64,000 bases of DNA from Escherichia coli (GTDB lineage: Bacteria; Pseudomonadota; Gammaproteobacteria; Enterobacterales; Enterobacteriaceae), in assembly GCF_024298765.1 (NCBI RefSeq), contig NZ_CP101210.1; one strand, 5' to 3'. The position numbers were made by a program, and so were the translations under genes. Each line of letters opens with the position of its first letter. The stretch's first letter is position 1. The notes below the pieces were generated by a model. It was not told where the DNA came from. It searched no databases and worked only from the letters and a program-made list of their open reading frames with translations. Positions 23,153-64,000 of the stretch are shown here, piece by piece.

Positions 23153-24742
23153 TTAATGCTCGCGGGTCTGGTGGAACTGAACGTCTGGATAACGTTCCTG
23201 CGCCAGGCGCAGGTTGACCATGCTGGTAGCGATGTAAGCGAGGTTATCGCCGCCATCAAGCGCCAGTTGGCTTTCGTTCTTACGCTTGAACTCTTCGAAT
23301 TTCTTCGCGTCCGCACATTCTACCCAGCGGGCAGTGGCAACGTTGACTGACTCATACACTGCTTCAACGTTGTATTCGCTCTTCAGACGCGCTACCACCA
23401 CATCAAACTGCAGCACACCAACCGCACCAACGATCAGATCGTTGTTGGAGATCGGACGGAACACCTGCACCGCGCCCTCTTCGGAAAGCTGTACCAGCCC
23501 TTTAAGCAGCTGTTTTTGCTTCAGCGGATCTTTCAGGCGGATACGACGGAACAGTTCTGGCGCGAAGTTCGGAATACCGGTGAACTTCATCATCTCACCC
23601 TGGGTAAAGGTGTCGCCGATCTGAATGGTGCCGTGGTTGTGCAGACCAAGGATATCGCCAGGATACGCTTCTTCAACGTGCGAACGGTCACCCGCCATAA
23701 AGGTCAGCGCGTCGGAGATCACCACATCTTTCGCAGTACGCACCTGGCGCAGCTTCATGCCTTTTTCATATTTACCGGACACCACACGCATAAACGCCAC
23801 GCGGTCGCGGTGTTTCGGGTCCATGTTGGCCTGAATTTTAAATACGAAGCCGGTAAATTTGTCTTCGCTCGCCTCTACGGTACGGGTATCAGTCTGACGC
23901 GGCATCGGCGCAGGAGCCCACTCCACCAGGCCATCCAGCATATGATCAACGCCGAAGTTACCCAGCGCAGTACCGAAGAATACCGGAGTGATTTCGCCCG
24001 CAAGGAACAGCTCTTTGTCGAACTCGTTAGACGCGCCTTTCACCAGTTCCAGTTCGTCACGTAGCTGCTGTGCTAGATCTTCACCAACCGCAGCGTCGAG
24101 ATCCGGGTTATTCAGCCCTTTAACAATGCGGACTTCCTGAATCGTGTGGCCTTTACCGCTCTGATAGAGATAGGTTTCATCTTTATAAAGGTGGTAAACG
24201 CCTTTAAACAGCTTGCCGCAGCCAATCGGCCAGGTGATCGGTGCGCAGCCGATTTTCAGCTCGTTCTCAACTTCATCGAGCAGCTCCATCGGGTCGCGGA
24301 TATCACGGTCAAGTTTGTTCATAAAGGTGAGGATCGGCGTGTCGCGCAGACGGGTAACTTCCATCAGCTTACGGGTACGATCTTCAACACCTTTTGCGGC
24401 GTCGATAACCATCAGGCAGCAGTCCACCGCCGTCAGGGTACGATAGGTATCTTCCGAGAAGTCTTCGTGCCCCGGGGTGTCGAGCAGGTTAACCAGGCAA
24501 TCGTGATACGGAAACTGCATCACAGACGTAGTAATGGAGATCCCACGCTGCTTTTCCATCTCCATCCAGTCCGACTTAGCGTGCTGGTTGGAACCACGGC
24601 CTTTTACTGTACCGGCGGTCTGAATGGCCTGTCCGAACAGCAGCACCTTCTCGGTGATGGTAGTCTTACCGGCGTCCGGGTGAGAAATAATGGCAAAAGT
24701 GCGGCGCTTCGCCACCTCTTGCAAATAAGGAGACAACGTCAT
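23153..24742 (-). CDS. prfC: peptide chain release factor 3
   Basis: 529 aa from [28 protein letters not shown]ase motif. Confidence 0.95.
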
Positions 24743-24832
24743 AATTCTTTCTTCTTGAGTAAGCGGCATCGCGCCGCGCTTGTTGAAAACGAAAAATTGC
24801 GGCTATTTTACCCATCAACGGGGGGGAGGCAA

Positions 24833-27548: not shown

Positions 27549-27686
27549 CAAACGAATTATCCACAATCCGCTGATGGACATTTTTCCAGCAATTACACCT
27601 CTGTCGATAATTAACTATTGACGAAAAGCTGAAAACCACTAGAATGCGCCTCCGTGGTAGCAATTCTTTTTAAGAATTGACGGTAT

Positions 27687-51981: not shown

Positions 51982-52012
51982 GGCCGCCATGTGGCGGCCT
52001 GAATTATTTTTT
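51982..52012. terminator. bidirectional terminator between yjiA and the brnA-like gene
   Basis: ggccgccatgtggcggcc hairpin followed by T-run. Confidence 0.6.
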
Positions 52013-52306
52013 ATTCTGATCGCGCAGCATCGCTTCACGTAAAATTGCGTTCAGGCGAGTTTGATAGCCTTTACCTGGTCGCTTCAACCATTCCATCACA
52101 TCAGCATCAATACGCACCGAAGCCTGAGTTTTCAATGGCCGATAAAACTTACCGCGTTCTGCGTTAGACCATTGCTCATCGCTGGAAGGTGGGATATCGC
52201 TGTAATCAATCTCTTCGTCGGATTTATTCGCCAGCACCTTCAATTCGGCCTCATGCTGCACATCGAGTGTAGAGGAGGTCCCTCGTTTATGTTTAACCAT
52301 GCTCAT
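52004..52306 (-). CDS. BrnA-like antitoxin (DUF4415/COG3514, RHH-type)
   Basis: 100 aa with family-typical EIDYSDIP...SVRIDADVMEWLKRPGKGYQTRLNAILREAM; ATG overlaps upstream ORF stop (ATGA). Confidence 0.6.
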   Translation of the reverse strand: MSMVKHKRGTSSTLDVQHEAELKVLANKSDEEIDYSDIPPSSDEQWSNAERGKFYRPLKTQASVRIDADVMEWLKRPGKGYQTRLNAILREAMLRDQNKK

Positions 52307-52431
52307 AGCGGCTCCGTTCGTTGTGGATCATCAAACACTAACACCGCATCTTCAAAGCGGATGCCATGTTTCACCCGATTACTTTTGGCCTTGTTTGCAT
52401 CCCATTCAAACTCCATTGGCATAGTTGCCAT
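52303..52431 (-). pseudogene. truncated BrnT-like toxin (DUF497) ORF, 42 aa
   Basis: hand-translated MATMPMEFEWDANKAKSNRVKHGIRFEDAVLVFDDPQRTEPL; BrnT-type N-terminus but about half the usual length; not in the ORF track (<60 aa). Confidence 0.5.
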
Positions 52432-52618: not shown

Positions 52619-53785
52619 GTGAAAAACTACAAAGTCATTACCCCGCTTTTTCCTACCTATGCGCAAGTTAAGGCTATGATGAAAGCCGTCTCAGGCTATT
52701 CCCTGAAAGCGGTACGCAATATGATTACCGCCATTCACGAGCAAACCGGAACGCCGCAAAAACCCGTTGACTGGTCGGAACCTGACCTGTGGATCAGCGA
52801 ACGCTTAACGGGTGAAGATGCCGACATCGCCCGTCGTATTTGGGATACCGATAATCACATATTGAACCCGCGCCACAGCTACGGCTGCTACTTATTCCTC
52901 AACTATCCCCAGTTTGAGCTGATGGAAAGCACGCCAGATGATACCTGGCAGCCCACCTCGCGCGGGCAAAAATTCCTGCAAGATGACGAAAAAACGCTGC
53001 GTTCACTGGACGACCAGGAAGGCATTCTGCAACTGCTTGAGCTGCTGGCTGGCCGGGAAATGTCGCGCCGCGCCGATTTATTGCCGGAATGGCAGGCCTT
53101 TTTGCATCAGCATTCGAAATTCGCGTCAGCAAGTTCAGTGAAAAGCACGCTCTACTCCCGTCTCTATAACCTTATCGACCGTGACATGGTTAACCGTGAA
53201 GGCATGAGCTATCGCATCACCGATACCGGGCGCGCCTGGCTTGGAAAAGCGTTGCCAGCACGAAAAAGCGATCCGCGTAAAGAGCTGCTGGAAGCAGTGA
53301 AACGCTACAACGAGCAGCAAAAAGAGCTGCTGCGCGAACAAATCAGCACGATGAACCCGTACAAATTTGAGCAACTGGTTGGTCAATTACTGGAAGCAAT
53401 GGGCTACGAGCAGGTCGAAGTGACCAAAGCCTCAGGCGATAAAGGTGTGGACGTGATTGGTCAGGTGCAGGTCGGCATCACCACTATTACCGAAGTGGTG
53501 CAGGTCAAAAGAATGCAGAACACTATCACTCGCCCGTATATCGACCAGTTGCGCGGGGCGTTGCCTTACCACAAAGCCATTCGCGGTACGCTCATCACCA
53601 CCGGGAAATTTGCGGCGAAATGTGCAGAAGCGGCGCTCTTTCCGGGTGCCGCGCCCATTACTCTTATCGACGGCGATCGTTTACTGGAACTGTTAATCGA
53701 AAATAACGTCGGCATTCGCCGCAGCAATGCAGTGGAATTGCTGGATGTAGATTTGCAGTTGTTTGATGAGCTGGAGATGGATTAA
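52619..53785 (+). CDS. Mrr-family (Mrr_cat) restriction endonuclease-like protein with extended N-terminal domain
   Basis: 388 aa, GTG start with AAGGGA Shine-Dalgarno; C-terminal GDKGVDVIGQ...VVQVKRMQNTITRPYIDQL; N-terminal ~240 aa unassigned. Confidence 0.7.
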   Translation: MKNYKVITPLFPTYAQVKAMMKAVSGYSLKAVRNMITAIHEQTGTPQKPVDWSEPDLWISERLTGEDADIARRIWDTDNHILNPRHSYGCYLFLNYPQFELMESTPDDTWQPTSRGQKFLQDDEKTLRSLDDQEGILQLLELLAGREMSRRADLLPEWQAFLHQHSKFASASSVKSTLYSRLYNLIDRDMVNREGMSYRITDTGRAWLGKALPARKSDPRKELLEAVKRYNEQQKELLREQISTMNPYKFEQLVGQLLEAMGYEQVEVTKASGDKGVDVIGQVQVGITTITEVVQVKRMQNTITRPYIDQLRGALPYHKAIRGTLITTGKFAAKCAEAALFPGAAPITLIDGDRLLELLIENNVGIRRSNAVELLDVDLQLFDELEMD

Positions 53786-56949: not shown

Positions 56950-59900
56950 ATGAGTCTCTCTTTCAGTGAAGCAAAATTAGAACAAGCGATCATTGAACTG
57001 TTACAGGATCAGGGATATCAACACCTGATCGGCGATAATGTCCCACGTTCAAGTCTCGATCAGGTCATCATCGAAGACGATCTCCGTCATTATTTAGCGG
57101 CACGTTACCAGCCTGATGGCATTACTGAAGAAGAGATTCAGCGACTGATCAAACAGTTCACCACGCTTCCGGCCTCCGATCTTTATGAAAGCAACAAAAT
57201 ATTTTGTCGCTGGCTGGCAAATGGTTTTCTGTTCAAACGCGACGATCGGCAACAAAAAGATCTCTATATTGAATTGCTCGACACCCGGCATCTACCTGCC
57301 GCGCTGCGCCAGATATTTGACGCCGAAGATGTCCCGTTGCAACAGGCGGCGGAACTCCCGCCCTCCTATATTAATCCGCCGCTTAACCGGATTAAGATTG
57401 TTAACCAGCTTCAAATCTCCGGCAAAGATAATCAGACTCGTATTCCTGACGGCATTCTCTATATCAACGGTCTGCCACTGGTCGTCTTTGAATTTAAAAG
57501 TGCGGTGCGCGAGCAGGAAGCCAGTATTGGCGATGCCTGGAAGCAGCTCTGTAAACGCTACCGCCGGGATATTCCACAACTGTTTATCTACAACGCGCTC
57601 TGCATTATTAGCGATGGCGTAAATAACCGGATGGGCAACCTGTTTGCGCCCTATGAATACTTTTACTCATGGCGCAAAGTCACCGGTAATGAAAACCGTG
57701 AACAGGACGGAATTCCATCATTGCACTCAATGATTCAGGGACTGTTTCATCCGGTACGTCTGTTGGATGTGATTAAAAACTTTATCTGCTTCCCGGATAA
57801 AGCCAAGCACGAAGTAAAAATTTGCTGCCGATATCCGCAGTACTATGCCGCCCGCAAACTCTATTACAGCATCAAGCAAGCGCGTAAACCTTTCGGTAGC
57901 GGTAAAGGCGGTACCTACTTTGGCGCAACGGGCTGCGGTAAAAGCTACACCATGCAATTTTTAACCCGCTTGTTAATGAAAAGCGTGGAGTTTGCCAGCC
58001 CGACCATTGTTTTGATCACCGACCGTACCGATCTGGACGATCAGCTTTCTGCGCAAATGTGCAACGCCAAAAATTACATTGGCGATGACACCATCGTTCC
58101 CGTTACCAGCCGTGAAGATTTGCGTAATCAACTGGCGGGACGCAATAGTGGCGGTGTATTCCTGACAACGATCCATAAATTCACCGAAGACACCGAACTC
58201 CTTTCTGAACGCAGCAATATCATTTGCATCTCGGACGAAGCACATCGCAGCCAGGTTAACCTCGACCAGAAAGTCATCGTCGATAAAGAAAGCGGAAAAG
58301 TACGCAAAACGTATGGCTTTGCAAAATACCTGCACGATTCACTGCCAAATGCCACCTATGTTGGCTTTACCGGCACACCGATTGACGCGACGCTCGATGT
58401 CTTCGGTGAGGTGATCGACAGTTACACCATGACCGAATCCGTTCAGGATGAAATCACTGTACGCATCGTGTACGAAGGCCGTGCGGCTAAAGTGATCCTG
58501 GACTCCAGCAAACTGGAAGAAGTCGAAAAGTATTACGAAGAGTGCGCAAACGCAGGCACCAATGAGTGGCAAATCGACGAAAGTAAAAAAGCCACCGCAA
58601 CCATGAATGCGGTACTGGGTGATGAAGATCGGTTAAAAGCCCTCGCGGAAGATTTTGCCAAACATTATGAAAAACGCGTAGCCGAAGGTTCCACCGTAAA
58701 AGGCAAAGCCATGTTTGTTTGTGCCAGCCGTGAAATTGCCTGGGATTTCTACCGCCAGCTTAAAGCTATTCGCCCTGCCTGGTTTGAAGTGAAGCAAGCA
58801 CCTGATGGCGTCGTCCTGACGGAACAGGAGCAGAAAGAGTTACCGCCTTCTGAAATGGTGAAGATGGTCATGACGCGCGGTAAAGATGACGACGAGACGC
58901 TTTATGATTTACTGGGCACAAAAGAATATCGCAAAGAGCTGGATAAGCAGTTCAAAAACGCTAAATCGAATTTCAAAATTGCCATTGTTGTTGATATGTG
59001 GCTGACCGGTTTTGATGTTCCTGAACTGGACACCATCTATATTGATAAGCCCTTACAAAAACATAACCTTATCCAGACTATTTCTCGCGTTAACCGTAAA
59101 CTGGAAGGCAAAAGCAAAGGGTTAGTAGTGGACTACATCGGCATTAAGAGTCAGATGAACCAGGCACTGGCAATGTATTCCCGCATTGATGCCACCAACT
59201 TTGAAGATATTCAGCAATCGGTAATAGAAGTTAAAAACCATCTCGATTTGTTGGGGCAAGTCTTTTACGAATTTGACAGTCGGGATTATTTTAGTGGTGA
59301 GCCACAAGCGCAATTATCCTGCCTCAACCGCGCGGCGGAATTTGTTCTGCGTACCCAGAAAGTTGAACGTCGGTTTATGGGACTGGTTAAACGCATGAAA
59401 GCCGCCTACGACGTCTGCTGCGGCAGCGAAGCATTATCACAGACAGAACGTGACTATATTCACTATTATCTTGCTGTTCGTTCAATTGTTTTCAAACTGA
59501 CGAAAGGTGACGCACCGGATGTCACCCAGATGAATGCTCGCGTTCGTGAAATGATTGCAGAAGCGTTAAAAGCTGATGGCGTAGAAGAAATTTATTTTCT
59601 TGGCGACAAAAAAGCGGAATCCATCGATATTTTTGACGAAGATTATCTGGCGCGAATTAACAAGATCAAACTTCCGGCAACGAAGATCCAGTTATTACAA
59701 AAATTACTGGAAAAAGCGATCAGCGACTTCAGGAAAGTGAACCAGTTGCAAGGGATTAACTTCACCCGCCGCTTCCAGGCGATTATAGATCGTTATAATG
59801 AGCGGCGAGAAGATGATGTACTCAACGGTGAAGAATTCGATACATTCAGTCAGGAAATGACCGATATTATCTATGATATTAAAACCGAAATGGGCACATG

Positions 59901-60213
59901 GGCCGATTTAGGTATTGATATTGAAGAAAAAGCGTTTTTCGACATTCTTGCTCATATGCGCGATAAATATCAGTTCACCTATGACGATGAAAAAATGCTG
60001 TCACTGGCAAAAGAGATGAAAAGCGTGGTTGACAACACATCGAAATATCCTGACTGGAGTAAACGCGATGATATTAAAGCGAAACTGAAAGTTGAACTTA
60101 TTCTGCTTCTACACAAGCATAAGTTCCCGCCAGTAGCGAATGATGATGTTTATATGGGTGTGCTGGCACAGGCAGAGAATTTTAAAGAACATCATATGAG
60201 TGCTTTAAATTAA
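56950..60213 (+). CDS. hsdR: type I restriction enzyme R subunit HsdR
   Basis: 1087 aa from ATG 56950; nuclease motif LVVFEFK, Walker A GATGCGKS, DEAH box. Confidence 0.9.
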   Translation: MSLSFSEAKLEQAIIELLQDQGYQHLIGDNVPRSSLDQVIIEDDLRHYLAARYQPDGITEEEIQRLIKQFTTLPASDLYESNKIFCRWLANGFLFKRDDRQQKDLYIELLDTRHLPAALRQIFDAEDVPLQQAAELPPSYINPPLNRIKIVNQLQISGKDNQTRIPDGILYINGLPLVVFEFKSAVREQEASIGDAWKQLCKRYRRDIPQLFIYNALCIISDGVNNRMGNLFAPYEYFYSWRKVTGNENREQDGIPSLHSMIQGLFHPVRLLDVIKNFICFPDKAKHEVKICCRYPQYYAARKLYYSIKQARKPFGSGKGGTYFGATGCGKSYTMQFLTRLLMKSVEFASPTIVLITDRTDLDDQLSAQMCNAKNYIGDDTIVPVTSREDLRNQLAGRNSGGVFLTTIHKFTEDTELLSERSNIICISDEAHRSQVNLDQKVIVDKESGKVRKTYGFAKYLHDSLPNATYVGFTGTPIDATLDVFGEVIDSYTMTESVQDEITVRIVYEGRAAKVILDSSKLEEVEKYYEECANAGTNEWQIDESKKATATMNAVLGDEDRLKALAEDFAKHYEKRVAEGSTVKGKAMFVCASREIAWDFYRQLKAIRPAWFEVKQAPDGVVLTEQEQKELPPSEMVKMVMTRGKDDDETLYDLLGTKEYRKELDKQFKNAKSNFKIAIVVDMWLTGFDVPELDTIYIDKPLQKHNLIQTISRVNRKLEGKSKGLVVDYIGIKSQMNQALAMYSRIDATNFEDIQQSVIEVKNHLDLLGQVFYEFDSRDYFSGEPQAQLSCLNRAAEFVLRTQKVERRFMGLVKRMKAAYDVCCGSEALSQTERDYIHYYLAVRSIVFKLTKGDAPDVTQMNARVREMIAEALKADGVEEIYFLGDKKAESIDIFDEDYLARINKIKLPATKIQLLQKLLEKAISDFRKVNQLQGINFTRRFQAIIDRYNERREDDVLNGEEFDTFSQEMTDIIYDIKTEMGTWADLGIDIEEKAFFDILAHMRDKYQFTYDDEKMLSLAKEMKSVVDNTSKYPDWSKRDDIKAKLKVELILLLHKHKFPPVANDDVYMGVLAQAENFKEHHMSALN

Positions 60214-60332
60214 TTATGAAGGCCGGATACACTTTGTTATCCGGCCATTCTGAATTAACGTTAATTTCTCTTCCAGATCTTTCCAGTAACGCTTTTATTA
60301 TTTTCTATTTTTAGCTGGACTTTCCCCATATT

Positions 60333-60352
60333 TACTGATGATATGTCCAGAT
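60333..60352. promoter_or_regulatory. LexA (SOS) box upstream of symE
   Basis: TACTGatgatatgtcCAGat fits CTG-N10-CAG. Confidence 0.7.
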
Positions 60353-60354
60353 AT

Positions 60355-60435
60355 TTAGCGCGGTGCGGATGTGCGCCAACACACCCGCACCGCTAATCAC
60401 AATCCCTATTTCAAAGGAATAGTAATCATGACTGA
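60355..60435 (-). ncRNA. symR: SymR antisense sRNA region (boundaries approximate)
   Basis: known cis-antisense RNA over the symE translation start; coordinates inferred from symE position, not from mapped ends. Confidence 0.45.
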
Positions 60436-60766
60436 CACGCATTCTATTGCACAACCGTTCGAAGCAGAAGTCTCTCCGGCAAATAACCGTCAATTAACCG
60501 TGAGTTATGCGAGTCGCTACCCGGATTACAGCCGTATTCCCGCCATCACCCTGAAAGGTCAGTGGCTGGAAACCGCCGGTTTTGCCACCGGCACGGCGGT
60601 AGATGTCAAAGTGATAGAAGGCTGTATTGTCCTCACCGCCCAACCACCCGCCGCCGAAGAGAGCGAACTGATGCAGTCACTGCGCCAGGTGTGCAAGCTG
60701 TCGGCGCGTAAACAAAGGCAGGTGCAGGATTTTATTGGGGTGATTAGTAGCAAAACGCCACGCTAA
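60428..60766 (+). CDS. symE: SOS-induced toxin SymE (AbrB-fold, endonuclease-like)
   Basis: 112 aa from [25 protein letters not shown] Shine-Dalgarno; track ORF starts at upstream GTG. Confidence 0.9.
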
Positions 60767-60807
60767 GTTTCTCTCCCCTTCCCCATACGGGAAGGGAAAT
60801 TGCCCCC

Positions 60808-60972
60808 TCACTCCACATCCTCCCTGCGTAACCCAATATCCCTCAATCGCTCATCACTCATCTGCTGTAACACCCGTCGGGCCTGCATTTGCCGCCGCCA
60901 ACGCCTCACCGCCTGCCAGAGTTGCACAAGTCTGATAAACGGCGTTTTGGCTTTGTTTTCGTGAAATTCCAT
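60808..60972 (-). CDS. yjiS: DUF1127 small protein YjiS
   Basis: hand-translated 54 aa MEFHENKAKTPFIRLVQLWQAVRRWRRQMQARRVLQQMSDERLRDIGLRREDVE, GAGGAGG Shine-Dalgarno; absent from ORF track. Confidence 0.8.
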   Translation of the reverse strand: MEFHENKAKTPFIRLVQLWQAVRRWRRQMQARRVLQQMSDERLRDIGLRREDVE

Positions 60973-61148
60973 CTGCTGCCTCCTCATCTTTCAGAGGCTT
61001 CATCATCCGCCTTCTGGCAGTTCACAATACAGATGCAAATATTAGTTTTATTTAACATACAGACAGGTTAAAACAACATCTGCATCCGGTTTTTTAGCCT
61101 CATCTGTACCGGTTTTTCTCTCTGTATGGTCCAAATAAGGAATACAGC

Positions 61149-62561
61149 ATGACGCGTTATCAACATCTGGCGACTCTGCTTGCCGAGCGGATTGAGCAAG
61201 GGCTGTATCGTCACGGGGAGAAATTGCCGTCGGTGCGCAGCTTAAGTCAGGAGCACGGCGTCAGTATTAGCACCGTGCAGCAGGCGTACCAGACGCTGGA
61301 GACGATGAAGCTCATCACTCCGCAGCCGCGTTCGGGTTATTTTGTCGCACAACGTAAAGCCCAGCCGCCAGTACCGCCGATGACGCGTCCGGTGCAGCGC
61401 CCGGTAGAGATTACCCAGTGGGACCAGGTACTGGATATGCTGGTAGCGCACAGCGACAGTTCCATTGTTCCGTTAAGCAAAAGCACGCCGGATGTCGAAA
61501 CGCCCAGCCTGAAACCGCTGTGGCGGGAGCTTAGCCGGGTAGTGCAGCATAATCTGCAAACCGTTCTCGGTTATGACTTGTTAGCCGGTCAGCGAGTGTT
61601 GCGAGAGCAGGTTGCCCGCCTGATGCTCGACAGCGGCTCAGTGGTCACCGCCGATGACATCATTATCACCAGCGGCTGCCATAACTCGATGTCGCTGGCG
61701 TTAATGGCGGTATGTAAACCGGGCGATATTGTCGCAGTCGAATCCCCCTGTTATTACGGTTCAATGCAGATGCTGCGCGGTATGGGCGTGAAAGTGATTG
61801 AAATCCCAACCGATCCAGAAACTGGCATCAGCGTTGAAGCGCTGGAACTGGCGCTGGAACAGTGGCCGATTAAAGGCATCATTCTGGTGCCAAACTGTAA
61901 TAATCCGCTGGGATTTATTATGCCGGACGCGCGCAAACGGGCCGTTCTCTCTCTCGCTCAGCGTCATGATATTGTGATTTTTGAAGATGATGTCTACGGC
62001 GAACTGGCGACGGAGTATCCGCGCCCGCGGACCATTCATTCCTGGGATATCGACGGGCGAGTGCTGCTGTGCAGCTCGTTCAGTAAAAGTATTGCACCAG
62101 GCCTGCGCGTGGGTTGGGTCGCACCGGGGCGTTATCACGATAAACTGATGCATATGAAATACGCCATCAGCAGCTTTAATGTGCCGTCCACGCAAATGGC
62201 GGCGGCAACGTTTGTGCTGGAAGGTCACTATCATCGCCATATCCGGCGGATGCGGCAGATCTATCAGCGCAATTTGGCGCTTTATACCTGCTGGATACGG
62301 GAATATTTTCCCTGCGAAATCTGTATTACGCGCCCGAAAGGCGGATTTTTACTGTGGATAGAATTGCCTGAACAGGTCGATATGGTCTGCGTCGCGCGGC
62401 AGCTGTGCCGCATGAAAATCCAGGTGGCAGCAGGCTCGATTTTCTCGGCTTCCGGCAAATACCGTAATTGTCTGCGCATCAACTGCGCTTTGCCGCTCAG
62501 CGAAACCTATCGCGAAGCACTAAAGCAAATTGGCGAAGCCGTGTATCGGGCAATGGAATGA
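61149..62561 (+). CDS. yjiR: MocR-type regulator (GntR HTH fused to aminotransferase-like domain) YjiR
   Basis: 470 aa. Confidence 0.85.
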   Translation: MTRYQHLATLLAERIEQGLYRHGEKLPSVRSLSQEHGVSISTVQQAYQTLETMKLITPQPRSGYFVAQRKAQPPVPPMTRPVQRPVEITQWDQVLDMLVAHSDSSIVPLSKSTPDVETPSLKPLWRELSRVVQHNLQTVLGYDLLAGQRVLREQVARLMLDSGSVVTADDIIITSGCHNSMSLALMAVCKPGDIVAVESPCYYGSMQMLRGMGVKVIEIPTDPETGISVEALELALEQWPIKGIILVPNCNNPLGFIMPDARKRAVLSLAQRHDIVIFEDDVYGELATEYPRPRTIHSWDIDGRVLLCSSFSKSIAPGLRVGWVAPGRYHDKLMHMKYAISSFNVPSTQMAAATFVLEGHYHRHIRRMRQIYQRNLALYTCWIREYFPCEICITRPKGGFLLWIELPEQVDMVCVARQLCRMKIQVAAGSIFSASGKYRNCLRINCALPLSETYREALKQIGEAVYRAME

Positions 62562-62679
62562 ATTCGAAATAGTGGCGAGCCCCCTGATTTCCTCTCACGA
62601 ATCGCGTGTGACTCGTTTTATCTTTGCAGGGTCATCGCCACGTTCCAGCATGGCTTAGGCAAAGTGTGCTTTGTTCATA

Positions 62680-62785
62680 CCGGATGCGGCGTGAACGCCT
62701 TATCCGGCTTACAAATCGCGCAAATTCAATAGATTGCAGAGGTAATGTAGGTCTGATAAGCGTAGCACATCAGGCAGCTTTGCGT
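62680..62785. repeat. REP elements
   Basis: ccggatgcggcgtgaacgccttatccgg and ggtctgataagcgtagcacatcaggc. Confidence 0.7.
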
Positions 62786-62802
62786 TTGTCATCAGTCTCT
62801 GA

Positions 62803-63746
62803 TTAGTACTCGATCCATGGATCGCGCTTGCTTTCAGGCAAGGGTTGCTCTAATGCCTGCATTTGCTCTGCCGAAAGTCCAGTATATCGTTGTATCCATT
62901 CAGGATCCGCACCGTTCTGCAAAAGCAATCTAAGGAGGCGTTGTTCCCCTTCTTCTTTCCCCTTTTCCATCCCTAACAGCCATCCATCATTATGAATTCG
63001 CTCTGCAATCGTCATTATTCGCTCCCTTTGTTGTGGCATTCGACGGGTAAGTTCACTGATAAACTCATTAAAACGCGCTTCATCGCCAGTCAGTAAAATG
63101 TAATTTAACAGCGCAGTTATCTGGCTGTCATTAGCACACTCTGTAACCAGTAATATTACCAGTTGATCGATAAGCCCCATCAGATCGCGCTGGCGAATAT
63201 GCTTTTGGATCAACTCCAACAGGGCGACTCTGCGGTGCTGCACAATCTCGTCGTCTGGCACGACAGTGACATCCACCAGCGGGAACGCTGCGGTATAAAG
63301 CTTCCGTGCGGTGGTCGGGTCAGCAAATTCGTCCAGCCAGCACAGGGACAGGGATAAGGACTACGGCTACCGTGATAAAACAGCATCGGGATGACCAGCG
63401 GTAGCGGTCGGCGTTTATCATGCTCGATATGGCGCTGCATCACCGCCATGGAATATCGCATCAGGCGAAAGGCCATATGGATATCCTCGCGGCTCTGATG
63501 TTCAATCACTACGTAAATATAACCATCACCTTCACGGGTCTTTACCGACCACAGAATATCGGAGTGTAGCGCCCGCAATTTTTCATCGACGAAGCTGGCG
63601 GATTCCAGTTTTAAGCTGTCGAGATCGCACAGTTCACGTAAATCTTTGGGTAAGTGGATCTCCATAAAATCCCGCGCGGTGTCAGGGTGCGTGAGAAAGG
63701 ATTTAAATAATGCGTCATGCGGCGTGCTGGTTGTGAAGTTTGTCAT
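62803..63746 (-). pseudogene. rpnD: recombination-promoting nuclease RpnD (YhgA-like), frameshifted
   Basis: ORFs 63210..63746 and 62803..63276 overlap in different frames; the first goes out of family sense after ~120 aa. Confidence 0.7.
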
Positions 63747-64000
63747 GGCGATCCGTCACCTGTAGATAAGATGGCCCGACTGTAGCGACTAACAAAACCA
63801 TTCTCACCCGGCAATTTCTCGTTCCCCGAGGCGCTTTCCAGGCTATTTTTGTTCCTCTGCAAACGATACATTTTTCCGGAAACAGGCTCGCGTTTTACAT
63901 TTCCTGTACCCGGCAGATATTCCCCTTTCCACCGCACTCTTTTGATTAACCGCAAATTTTAATTACACTTAAGGTGTATATTTTCTATGCAACCCATCAA

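Follow-up and report, generated by a model that had tools for sequence, protein, structure and literature searches.

In Escherichia coli K-12, symE transcription is repressed by LexA, translation of the message is blocked by the antisense RNA SymR, and any SymE protein is a substrate for degradation by Lon (PMC1891008). SymR, which is stable and roughly 10-fold more abundant, pairs with the 5' end of the symE mRNA, and its action requires neither Hfq nor RNase III (PMC1891008, PMC4147584). SymE was first proposed to be an endoribonuclease, a name that persists in RefSeq. In the summary that PMC11894785 gives of the work of Thompson et al. (2022), no RNA cleavage by SymE was found; instead it bound DNA non-specifically and condensed the nucleoid. 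Kawano et al. had earlier noted that SymE genes are associated with restriction-modification islands. Island variants of type IA, IB and ID with brnAT, symE-symR and rpn were described in a 2025 review (PMC12707154), and the immigration control region is also covered in PMC2481252 and PMC3874165.

The window analysed here is a 64,000-nt stretch of an E. coli chromosome, and all positions below refer to it. The genes read between 59800 and 61400 are, in order, hsdR (+), symE (+), yjiS (-) and yjiR (+), with the large plus-strand open reading frame identified as hsdR (Pfam, TIGR00348 and PADLOC) ending at 60213 and yjiR, encoding a MocR-like regulator, starting at 61149 on the same strand. [quoted passage not shown] This arrangement of symE/SymR and yjiS is a common, previously described variant of the restriction island, and is in that sense already known and ordinary.

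Results

The symE gene and its product

The coding sequence of symE occupies positions 60428-60766 of the plus strand and comprises 112 codons plus the stop, as judged from Pfam PF08845, NCBIfam NF010128 and the RefSeq annotation of a near-identical strain. The encoded protein matched the Pfam SymE_toxin family (PF08845) with an E value of 1.5e-19 and the NCBIfam equivalog NF010128 with 219.4 bits against a cut-off of 132. When aligned with SymE of MG1655, 100 of 109 residues were identical (92%). These comparisons bear out the identity given to the gene in the preliminary description; the product is a toxin protein of the SymE family, with an AbrB/MazE-like fold. A Shine-Dalgarno sequence, AGGA, was read directly on the plus strand at 60415-60418, 9 nt 5' of the ATG and inside the stretch complementary to SymR. 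No model in the PADLOC scan matched SymE or YjiS.

A megablast search with positions 60214-61148 as the query showed that homology with K-12-like, O157 and other arrangements runs from query position 84-90 to 532-533. The conserved symE module so defined (60297-60745, plus strand) is common to all island variants and contains the promoter region, the LexA box, the 5' UTR with SymR and most of symE. Its left edge lies near 60297, about 36 nt 5' of the LexA box, and its right edge near 60745, which is seven codons short of the stop of symE. The module 60297-60745 was found once in 2872 of the 5426 complete E. coli genomes.

The C-terminal tail of SymE varies with the gene that follows. It reads ...VISSKTPR where the downstream neighbour is yjiS and ...VIAGKQKVA where the neighbour is mcrB, GmrSD or a helicase gene. 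Since the tails track the downstream neighbour, the boundary of the variable segment falls inside the last seven codons of symE (60745-60766).

The SymR antisense RNA

SymR is a 77-nt RNA with two hairpins, encoded on the minus strand from 60433 to 60357. It was identified by the Rfam family RF01809 with a score of 93.4 bits (gathering score 61, E = 5.7e-18), and the match covers model positions 1-77 of 77. In a permissive Rfam scan of 58000-64000, SymR was the sole match above the gathering score of any family. The 5' end of the RNA lies 3 nt past the symE ATG (60428-60430), and the transcript covers the ribosome-binding site and the rest of the 5' UTR. The expectation that the antisense RNA would cover the start region of symE was thus confirmed by a full-length match, the overlap in cis taking in the 5' UTR, the ribosome-binding site and the start codon. 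The RNA folds with a minimum free energy of -41.4 kcal/mol, a z score of -7.3 relative to shuffled sequences.

[quoted passage not shown] This hexamer is identical to the one mutated in K-12, where the change from CATTCT to CACTCC abolished SymR (Kawano et al. 2007, PMC1891008). The motif is kept in 14 of the 15 genomes inspected, and strain 103605 has TATTCT with TAGAAT still intact. A consensus scan of 60100-61200 gave no convincing -35 element for symR, and reported no sigma-70 promoter for either symE or symR and no intrinsic terminator. The positions of the promoters therefore rest on the K-12 mutagenesis (PMC1891008).

The 15 genomes carry 10 distinct SymR alleles, among which no compensatory covariation was found. 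With the pairing of the Rfam structure, 93.8% of the cells in these alleles pair, as compared with no more than 51% after the pairing has been shifted along. At this depth of 10 E. coli alleles, the SymR structure appears compatible with the sequences rather than independently supported by them, and in view of the lack of compensatory changes it is the Rfam score that serves as evidence for SymR.

A separate observation concerns the ST131-type allele, also present in E41-1. At the tip of the 3' hairpin of SymR, which resembles a terminator (window 60382-60389), 8 bp are exactly reverse-complemented, from GCGCCAAC to GTTGGCGC, a change that keeps the stem and turns the loop from UUGG into CGCCAA. 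The difference looks like an inversion of the hairpin tip rather than a series of point mutations.

The LexA box and presumed SOS control

A LexA box, TACTGATGATATGTCCAGAT, of the form CTG-N10-CAG, was found by direct reading and pattern search on the plus strand at 60333-60352, 95 nt 5' of the symE ATG, where K-12 also has its box, TACTGATGATATATACAGGT. The pattern TACTG-N10-CAG occurs five times in the window where 1.1 occurrences are expected, and by eye only the one at 60333-60352 has an A+T-rich spacer. In all of the 15 E. coli genomes, the box lies 95 nt 5' of the ATG and its CTG and CAG are invariant. Four operator alleles were distinguished among these genomes. The allele ending in ATATCCAGGT is present in nine and that ending in ATGTCCAGGT in three, while the K-12 allele, ending in ATATACAGGT, is present in two and the allele ending in ATGTCCAGAT in the window only. 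The window box differs by three substitutions from the K-12 box that was studied experimentally. The exact 53-nt stretch around the window allele is found in about 56-59 of the 5426 complete genomes, or about 2% of those that bear symE.

The alleles were scored with an approximate LexA matrix made from 27 K-12 operators known from the literature, with the symE operator left out. By this matrix, the window allele has 13.9 bits and an HI of 10.3, and the K-12 allele has 19.6 bits and an HI of 6.6. The best score in random sequence of 64 kb averages 13.6 ± 2.5 bits with the same matrix, and the window box, at 13.9 bits, is second in the window. In the 64-kb window its score is thus that of the mean best random match and not statistically exceptional, and because it lies at the chance level a LexA site cannot be established from the sequence by itself. 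The preliminary description had spoken of a good LexA box upstream of symE. A box is indeed present and begins exactly at 60333, but the adjective does not hold, the score being 13.9 bits as opposed to 19.6 bits in K-12. From its positional homology we take the box to be probably real, but a weak allele, and SOS control of symE, which is inferred from the same homology, may be weaker than in K-12.

The highest-scoring match to the LexA matrix in the window is another sequence, TGATGGACATTTTTCCAGCA at 27572-27591 (14.1 bits), between rsmC and a leu-tRNA cluster. Its CTG core is missing on one side, and a score of this size is expected by chance.

The low score raises the question of whether SOS control has been largely lost in this lineage. 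The symE/SymR pair would then be intact, the substitutions would make LexA bind less well and might also impair the overlapping promoter, and SymE would be restrained mainly by SymR and Lon. The drop from 19.6 to 13.9 bits and the rise in HI from 6.6 to 10.3 between the K-12 and the window allele are in line with such a loss. For the symE box of K-12 an HI of 7.9 has been published, and HI values up to 13 occur among accepted SOS genes, polB and yoaA being listed at 13 (PMC11228462); when the shift is added to the published K-12 value, the window box comes to about 11.6-12.9, at the weak end of the functional boxes. Even in K-12 the regulation of symE is modest, with 1.5-fold induction by AZT and a 2.5-fold dependence on lexA (PMC11228462), and the rarity of the window allele points in the same direction. 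However, the box retains its CTG and CAG and, between them, the A+T-rich spacer of 10 bp; of its three variant bases, two (G at position 13 and C at position 15) are also widespread in other lineages of E. coli. Several well-known LexA operators also have C at position 15, with CCAG for ACAG, which counts against the loss. A large loss of SOS control is conceivable but on balance doubtful, and we retain the reading of a LexA-controlled symE, possibly with weakened repression.

The convergent gene yjiS

On the minus strand, yjiS extends from 60972 to 60808 and encodes a DUF1127 small protein of 54 residues, as indicated by Pfam PF06568, RefSeq and direct reading. The match to PF06568 (E = 2.8e-12) covers residues 23-59 of a 59-residue open reading frame, and the short protein is essentially one DUF1127 domain. 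RefSeq calls the 54-residue version yjiS and annotates the same 165-bp gene in strain 13P477T, which differs from the window at only two bases over the last 15.8 kb. A GAGGAGG Shine-Dalgarno sequence lies 6 nt 5' of the ATG at 60972, which favours this start over the upstream ATG at 60987. The description of yjiS as a DUF1127 gene on the opposite strand, convergent with symE, was upheld by the Pfam match and by the same coordinates in RefSeq. That the ORF track had missed it, as also stated, fits a product of 54 residues (59 in the longest open reading frame) that falls below the default cut-off of 60.

The stop codons of symE and yjiS face each other at a distance of 41 nt. Between them lies an 8-bp G+C-rich hairpin, CCCUUCCC/GGGAAGGG (60776-60796), found by folding, with -15.5 kcal/mol on the plus strand (z = -2.6) and -20.7 kcal/mol on the minus strand (z = -2.1). 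The hairpin has no U-tract on either strand, and the terminator scan reported nothing there.

The adjacency of symE and yjiS is probably not meaningful in function, yjiS being an unrelated framework gene. The two genes are neighbours because this variant of the island lacks the block from mcrBC to yjiT. In a K-12-like strain yjiS is about 7.6 kb away from symE. Strains that have a penicillin acylase pseudogene or IS1 in place of the restriction cassette lack symE but keep yjiS, except that yjiS is missing too from one of those with IS1, ET82. It could nonetheless be argued that the convergent transcripts overlap at their 3' ends and create a new regulatory coupling specific to this island variant, given that only 41 nt and one hairpin without a U-tract separate the stops and that the adjacency recurs in 916 genomes. 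The absent mcrBC-yjiT block simply accounts for the adjacency, however, and the occurrence of yjiS and symE independently of each other in other strains also speaks against a coupling, which we consider unlikely. We know of no link between YjiS or other DUF1127 proteins and symE, and keep to the view of yjiS as an unrelated neighbour.

Two further features of this junction were observed. In K-12-like strains the octamer CCCCCTCA is present 62 nt 3' of symE and again at the yjiS stop, as a direct repeat that brackets the block of about 7.6 kb with mcrB, mcrC, a hypothetical gene and yjiT. The window has a single copy of CCCCCTCA (60798-60810), and for this reason resembles the matching empty site. 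Between strains, the poly-C run beside the yjiS stop differs in length.

Island context and gene order

The island lies between yjiA and yjiS/yjiR and contains a type I restriction-modification system. According to the RefSeq annotation of the near-identical strain 13P477T, the order in the window is yjiA, brnA, a brnT remnant, a gene for an Mrr-like nuclease, hsdM, hsdS, hsdR, symE, yjiS (-), yjiR, a frameshifted rpn and mdtM. A K-12-like strain has mrr (-), hsdR, hsdM, hsdS, symE, mcrB, mcrC, a hypothetical gene, yjiT, yjiS (-) and yjiR, and the order in O157:H7 is hsdR, hsdM and hsdS of the EcoAI family, followed by symE, GmrSD/DUF262 genes and yjiS. Compared with K-12, the hsd family and the gene order differ and the mcrBC-to-yjiT block is missing, while the position of symE relative to hsd is the same. 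An inversion of symE relative to hsd in K-12 was considered and rejected; the annotated K-12-like locus has symE on the same strand as hsdRMS and mcrBC, and the window accordingly contains no inversion.

The placement of symE after hsdR, unlike its position between hsdS and mcrB in K-12, was correctly described from the outset. It is not peculiar to this strain: the 935-bp interval from hsdR to yjiR, and with it the symE-yjiS adjacency, is found in one piece in 916 of the 5426 complete E. coli genomes, ST131 included.

The hsdR gene (56950-60213, plus strand, start taken from the RefSeq annotation) is the last in the order hsdM-hsdS-hsdR and was identified by the Pfam domains HSDR_N, SWI2_SNF2 and T1RH-like_C, by TIGR00348 and by the PADLOC model REase_I (1715 bits). 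The system probably belongs to family ID, an assignment made by elimination only: the review lists only IA, IB and ID at this island, and the gene order differs from those of the K-12 IA and the O157 EcoAI-family IB systems. Just 3' of the hsdR stop, folding revealed a plus-strand hairpin, GGCCGGATA...TATCCGGCC (60221-60246), with -21.8 kcal/mol and a z score of -6.8. It has no T-run and was not called a terminator, and it is a possible barrier to read-through into symE.

Other genes of the island were also noted. The antitoxin gene brnA is intact (52004-52422; Pfam BrnA_antitoxin, 2e-17), the toxin gene brnT is a truncated pseudogene in the near-identical 13P477T, and both are intact in ST131. 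Immediately 5' of hsdM and on the same strand, a 388-residue nuclease with an Mrr_cat domain is encoded at 52619-53785; it matched the PADLOC candidate model PDC-S02 with 687 bits, and models of type IV methyl-directed restriction more weakly. A gene of the Rpn family (YhgA-like, Transposase_31) lies 3' of yjiR at 62803-63746 in two overlapping open reading frames of 178 and 157 residues; the RefSeq annotation of the near-identical strain marks a frameshift in it, and ST131 has an intact copy. In the yjiR-rpn intergenic region (62673-62754), Rfam gave matches below threshold to naRNA4, which is a REP-type hairpin (32.4 bits, gathering score 59.5), and to ES036/CssrF (33.4 bits, gathering score 37.6); these probably represent a REP element. 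At the other end of the comparison, the window matches 13P477T only from about 24678 on; upstream of this point 13P477T has a lambdoid prophage, with its integrase beside yjjG. The prfC gene (RF3) of the window is intact at 23153-24769, and the window therefore comes from a close relative without that prophage.

Association of symE with type I restriction-modification genes

In each of the 15 symE-bearing genomes inspected, symE immediately follows the last hsd gene, which in one of them is only a truncated hsdR remnant. These genomes span at least three types of hsd cluster, namely IA, EcoAI-family IB and the hsdM-S-R type of the window. Conversely, symE is absent in all six genomes without hsd in the island, four with a penicillin G acylase pseudogene and two with IS1. 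Physical linkage in one replaceable cassette is the simple explanation of the association.

Expression of symE mainly by read-through from hsdM-hsdS-hsdR, as a fourth restriction-modification gene and not as an independent SOS unit, is highly improbable: symE does lie on the hsdR strand only 214 nt downstream, behind a hairpin that has no T-run and is not scored as a terminator, and its place is directly behind the last hsd gene in all 15 genomes, but the conserved module starts about 36 nt 5' of the LexA box whatever the hsd family, which fits an autonomous promoter, the stable hairpin after hsdR (z = -6.8) could terminate or stabilise the hsd transcript, and in K-12, even though hsd is expressed, there is next to no symE mRNA unless DNA is damaged (PMC1891008). 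We also give scarcely any credence to the idea that symE is functionally linked to the type I cassettes and more than a passenger in them. If that were true, SymE induced by SOS, which condenses the nucleoid non-specifically, might work together with the type I enzymes once DNA has been damaged, for instance by protecting unmodified host DNA made in repair synthesis from self-restriction, or it might serve as an addiction module of the hsd cassette. The preferred reading remains that of an independent symE/symR unit carried in the same replaceable cassette as hsd.

Discussion

The sequence elements of the symE/symR system in the window are intact, correctly placed and conserved across E. coli. 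Alignment with the K-12 symE-symR region, the check suggested in the preliminary description, places the LexA box and the symR -10 at homologous positions; in SymE, 100 of the 109 aligned residues are identical. By homology with K-12, the weaker box allele would be bound by LexA, SymR would be expressed and the SymE protein would be active.

Transferred from K-12, the mechanism would be as follows. LexA bound at 60333-60352 would repress the symE promoter until DNA damage. A stable 77-nt SymR would be made constitutively from the promoter inside symE (-10 TAGAAT, 60446-60441) and, being perfectly complementary to the 5' UTR, the ribosome-binding site and the start codon of symE, would block translation. 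Lon would degrade any SymE that is produced, and SymE, an AbrB/MazE-fold protein, would be toxic when overproduced.

The value of the analysis is mainly one of annotation. Features like SymR and the 54-residue yjiS escape tracks that are based on ORFs, and beyond correct annotation the locus, a classic type I toxin-antitoxin pair within a thoroughly studied defence island, has little importance. The LexA operator does vary among E. coli lineages, and SOS strength equal to that of K-12 should not be assumed for the window allele.

The 54-residue arginine-rich DUF1127 protein encoded beside yjiR in the window has its counterparts in Salmonella YjiS and other small DUF1127 proteins (PMC11707872; CcaF1, PMC8034643), but the function of YjiS, namely inner-membrane association and the timing of macrophage escape, was studied in Salmonella and not in E. 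coli (PMC11707872). With the SOS-controlled type I loci tisB/istR-1 and dinQ/agrB (PMC4147584), the symE locus would share a LexA-repressed toxin gene and a constitutive small antisense or antitoxin RNA. It differs from them in that SymE is a soluble AbrB-fold protein of 112 residues and not a small membrane peptide, and in that SymR is fully cis-antisense to the 5' end and unusually stable, while the toxin is labile through Lon.

The island as a whole corresponds to the variants of the immigration control region, or defence hotspot 36 (Sibley & Raleigh 2004, as cited in PMC2481252; PMC12707154). There too, a variable island lies between yjiA and the yjiS/yjiR/yjiN side, and the type I system, the Mrr-type type IV nuclease, brnAT, symE-symR and rpn are all present in the window. 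There is no substantive difference; brnT is truncated and rpn frameshifted in the window strain as in 13P477T.

The closest system is symE/symR of K-12 (yjiW/RyjC; Kawano, Aravind & Storz 2007, PMC1891008). The window differs from it in the LexA box, with three substitutions, in another haplotype of the SymR 5' hairpin, with one non-canonical pair in the Rfam alignment, and in the SymE tail, which is SSKTPR in place of AGKQKVA and gives a protein of 112 instead of 113 residues. The neighbours also differ, with hsdR on the left and yjiS on the right, whereas K-12 has hsdS and mcrB. What the two share is a 77-nt antisense RNA whose 5' end lies 3 nt beyond the start codon of symE, the symR -10 inside symE, the distance from the LexA box to the ATG, 92% protein identity, and the position of symE directly after a type I restriction-modification cluster.
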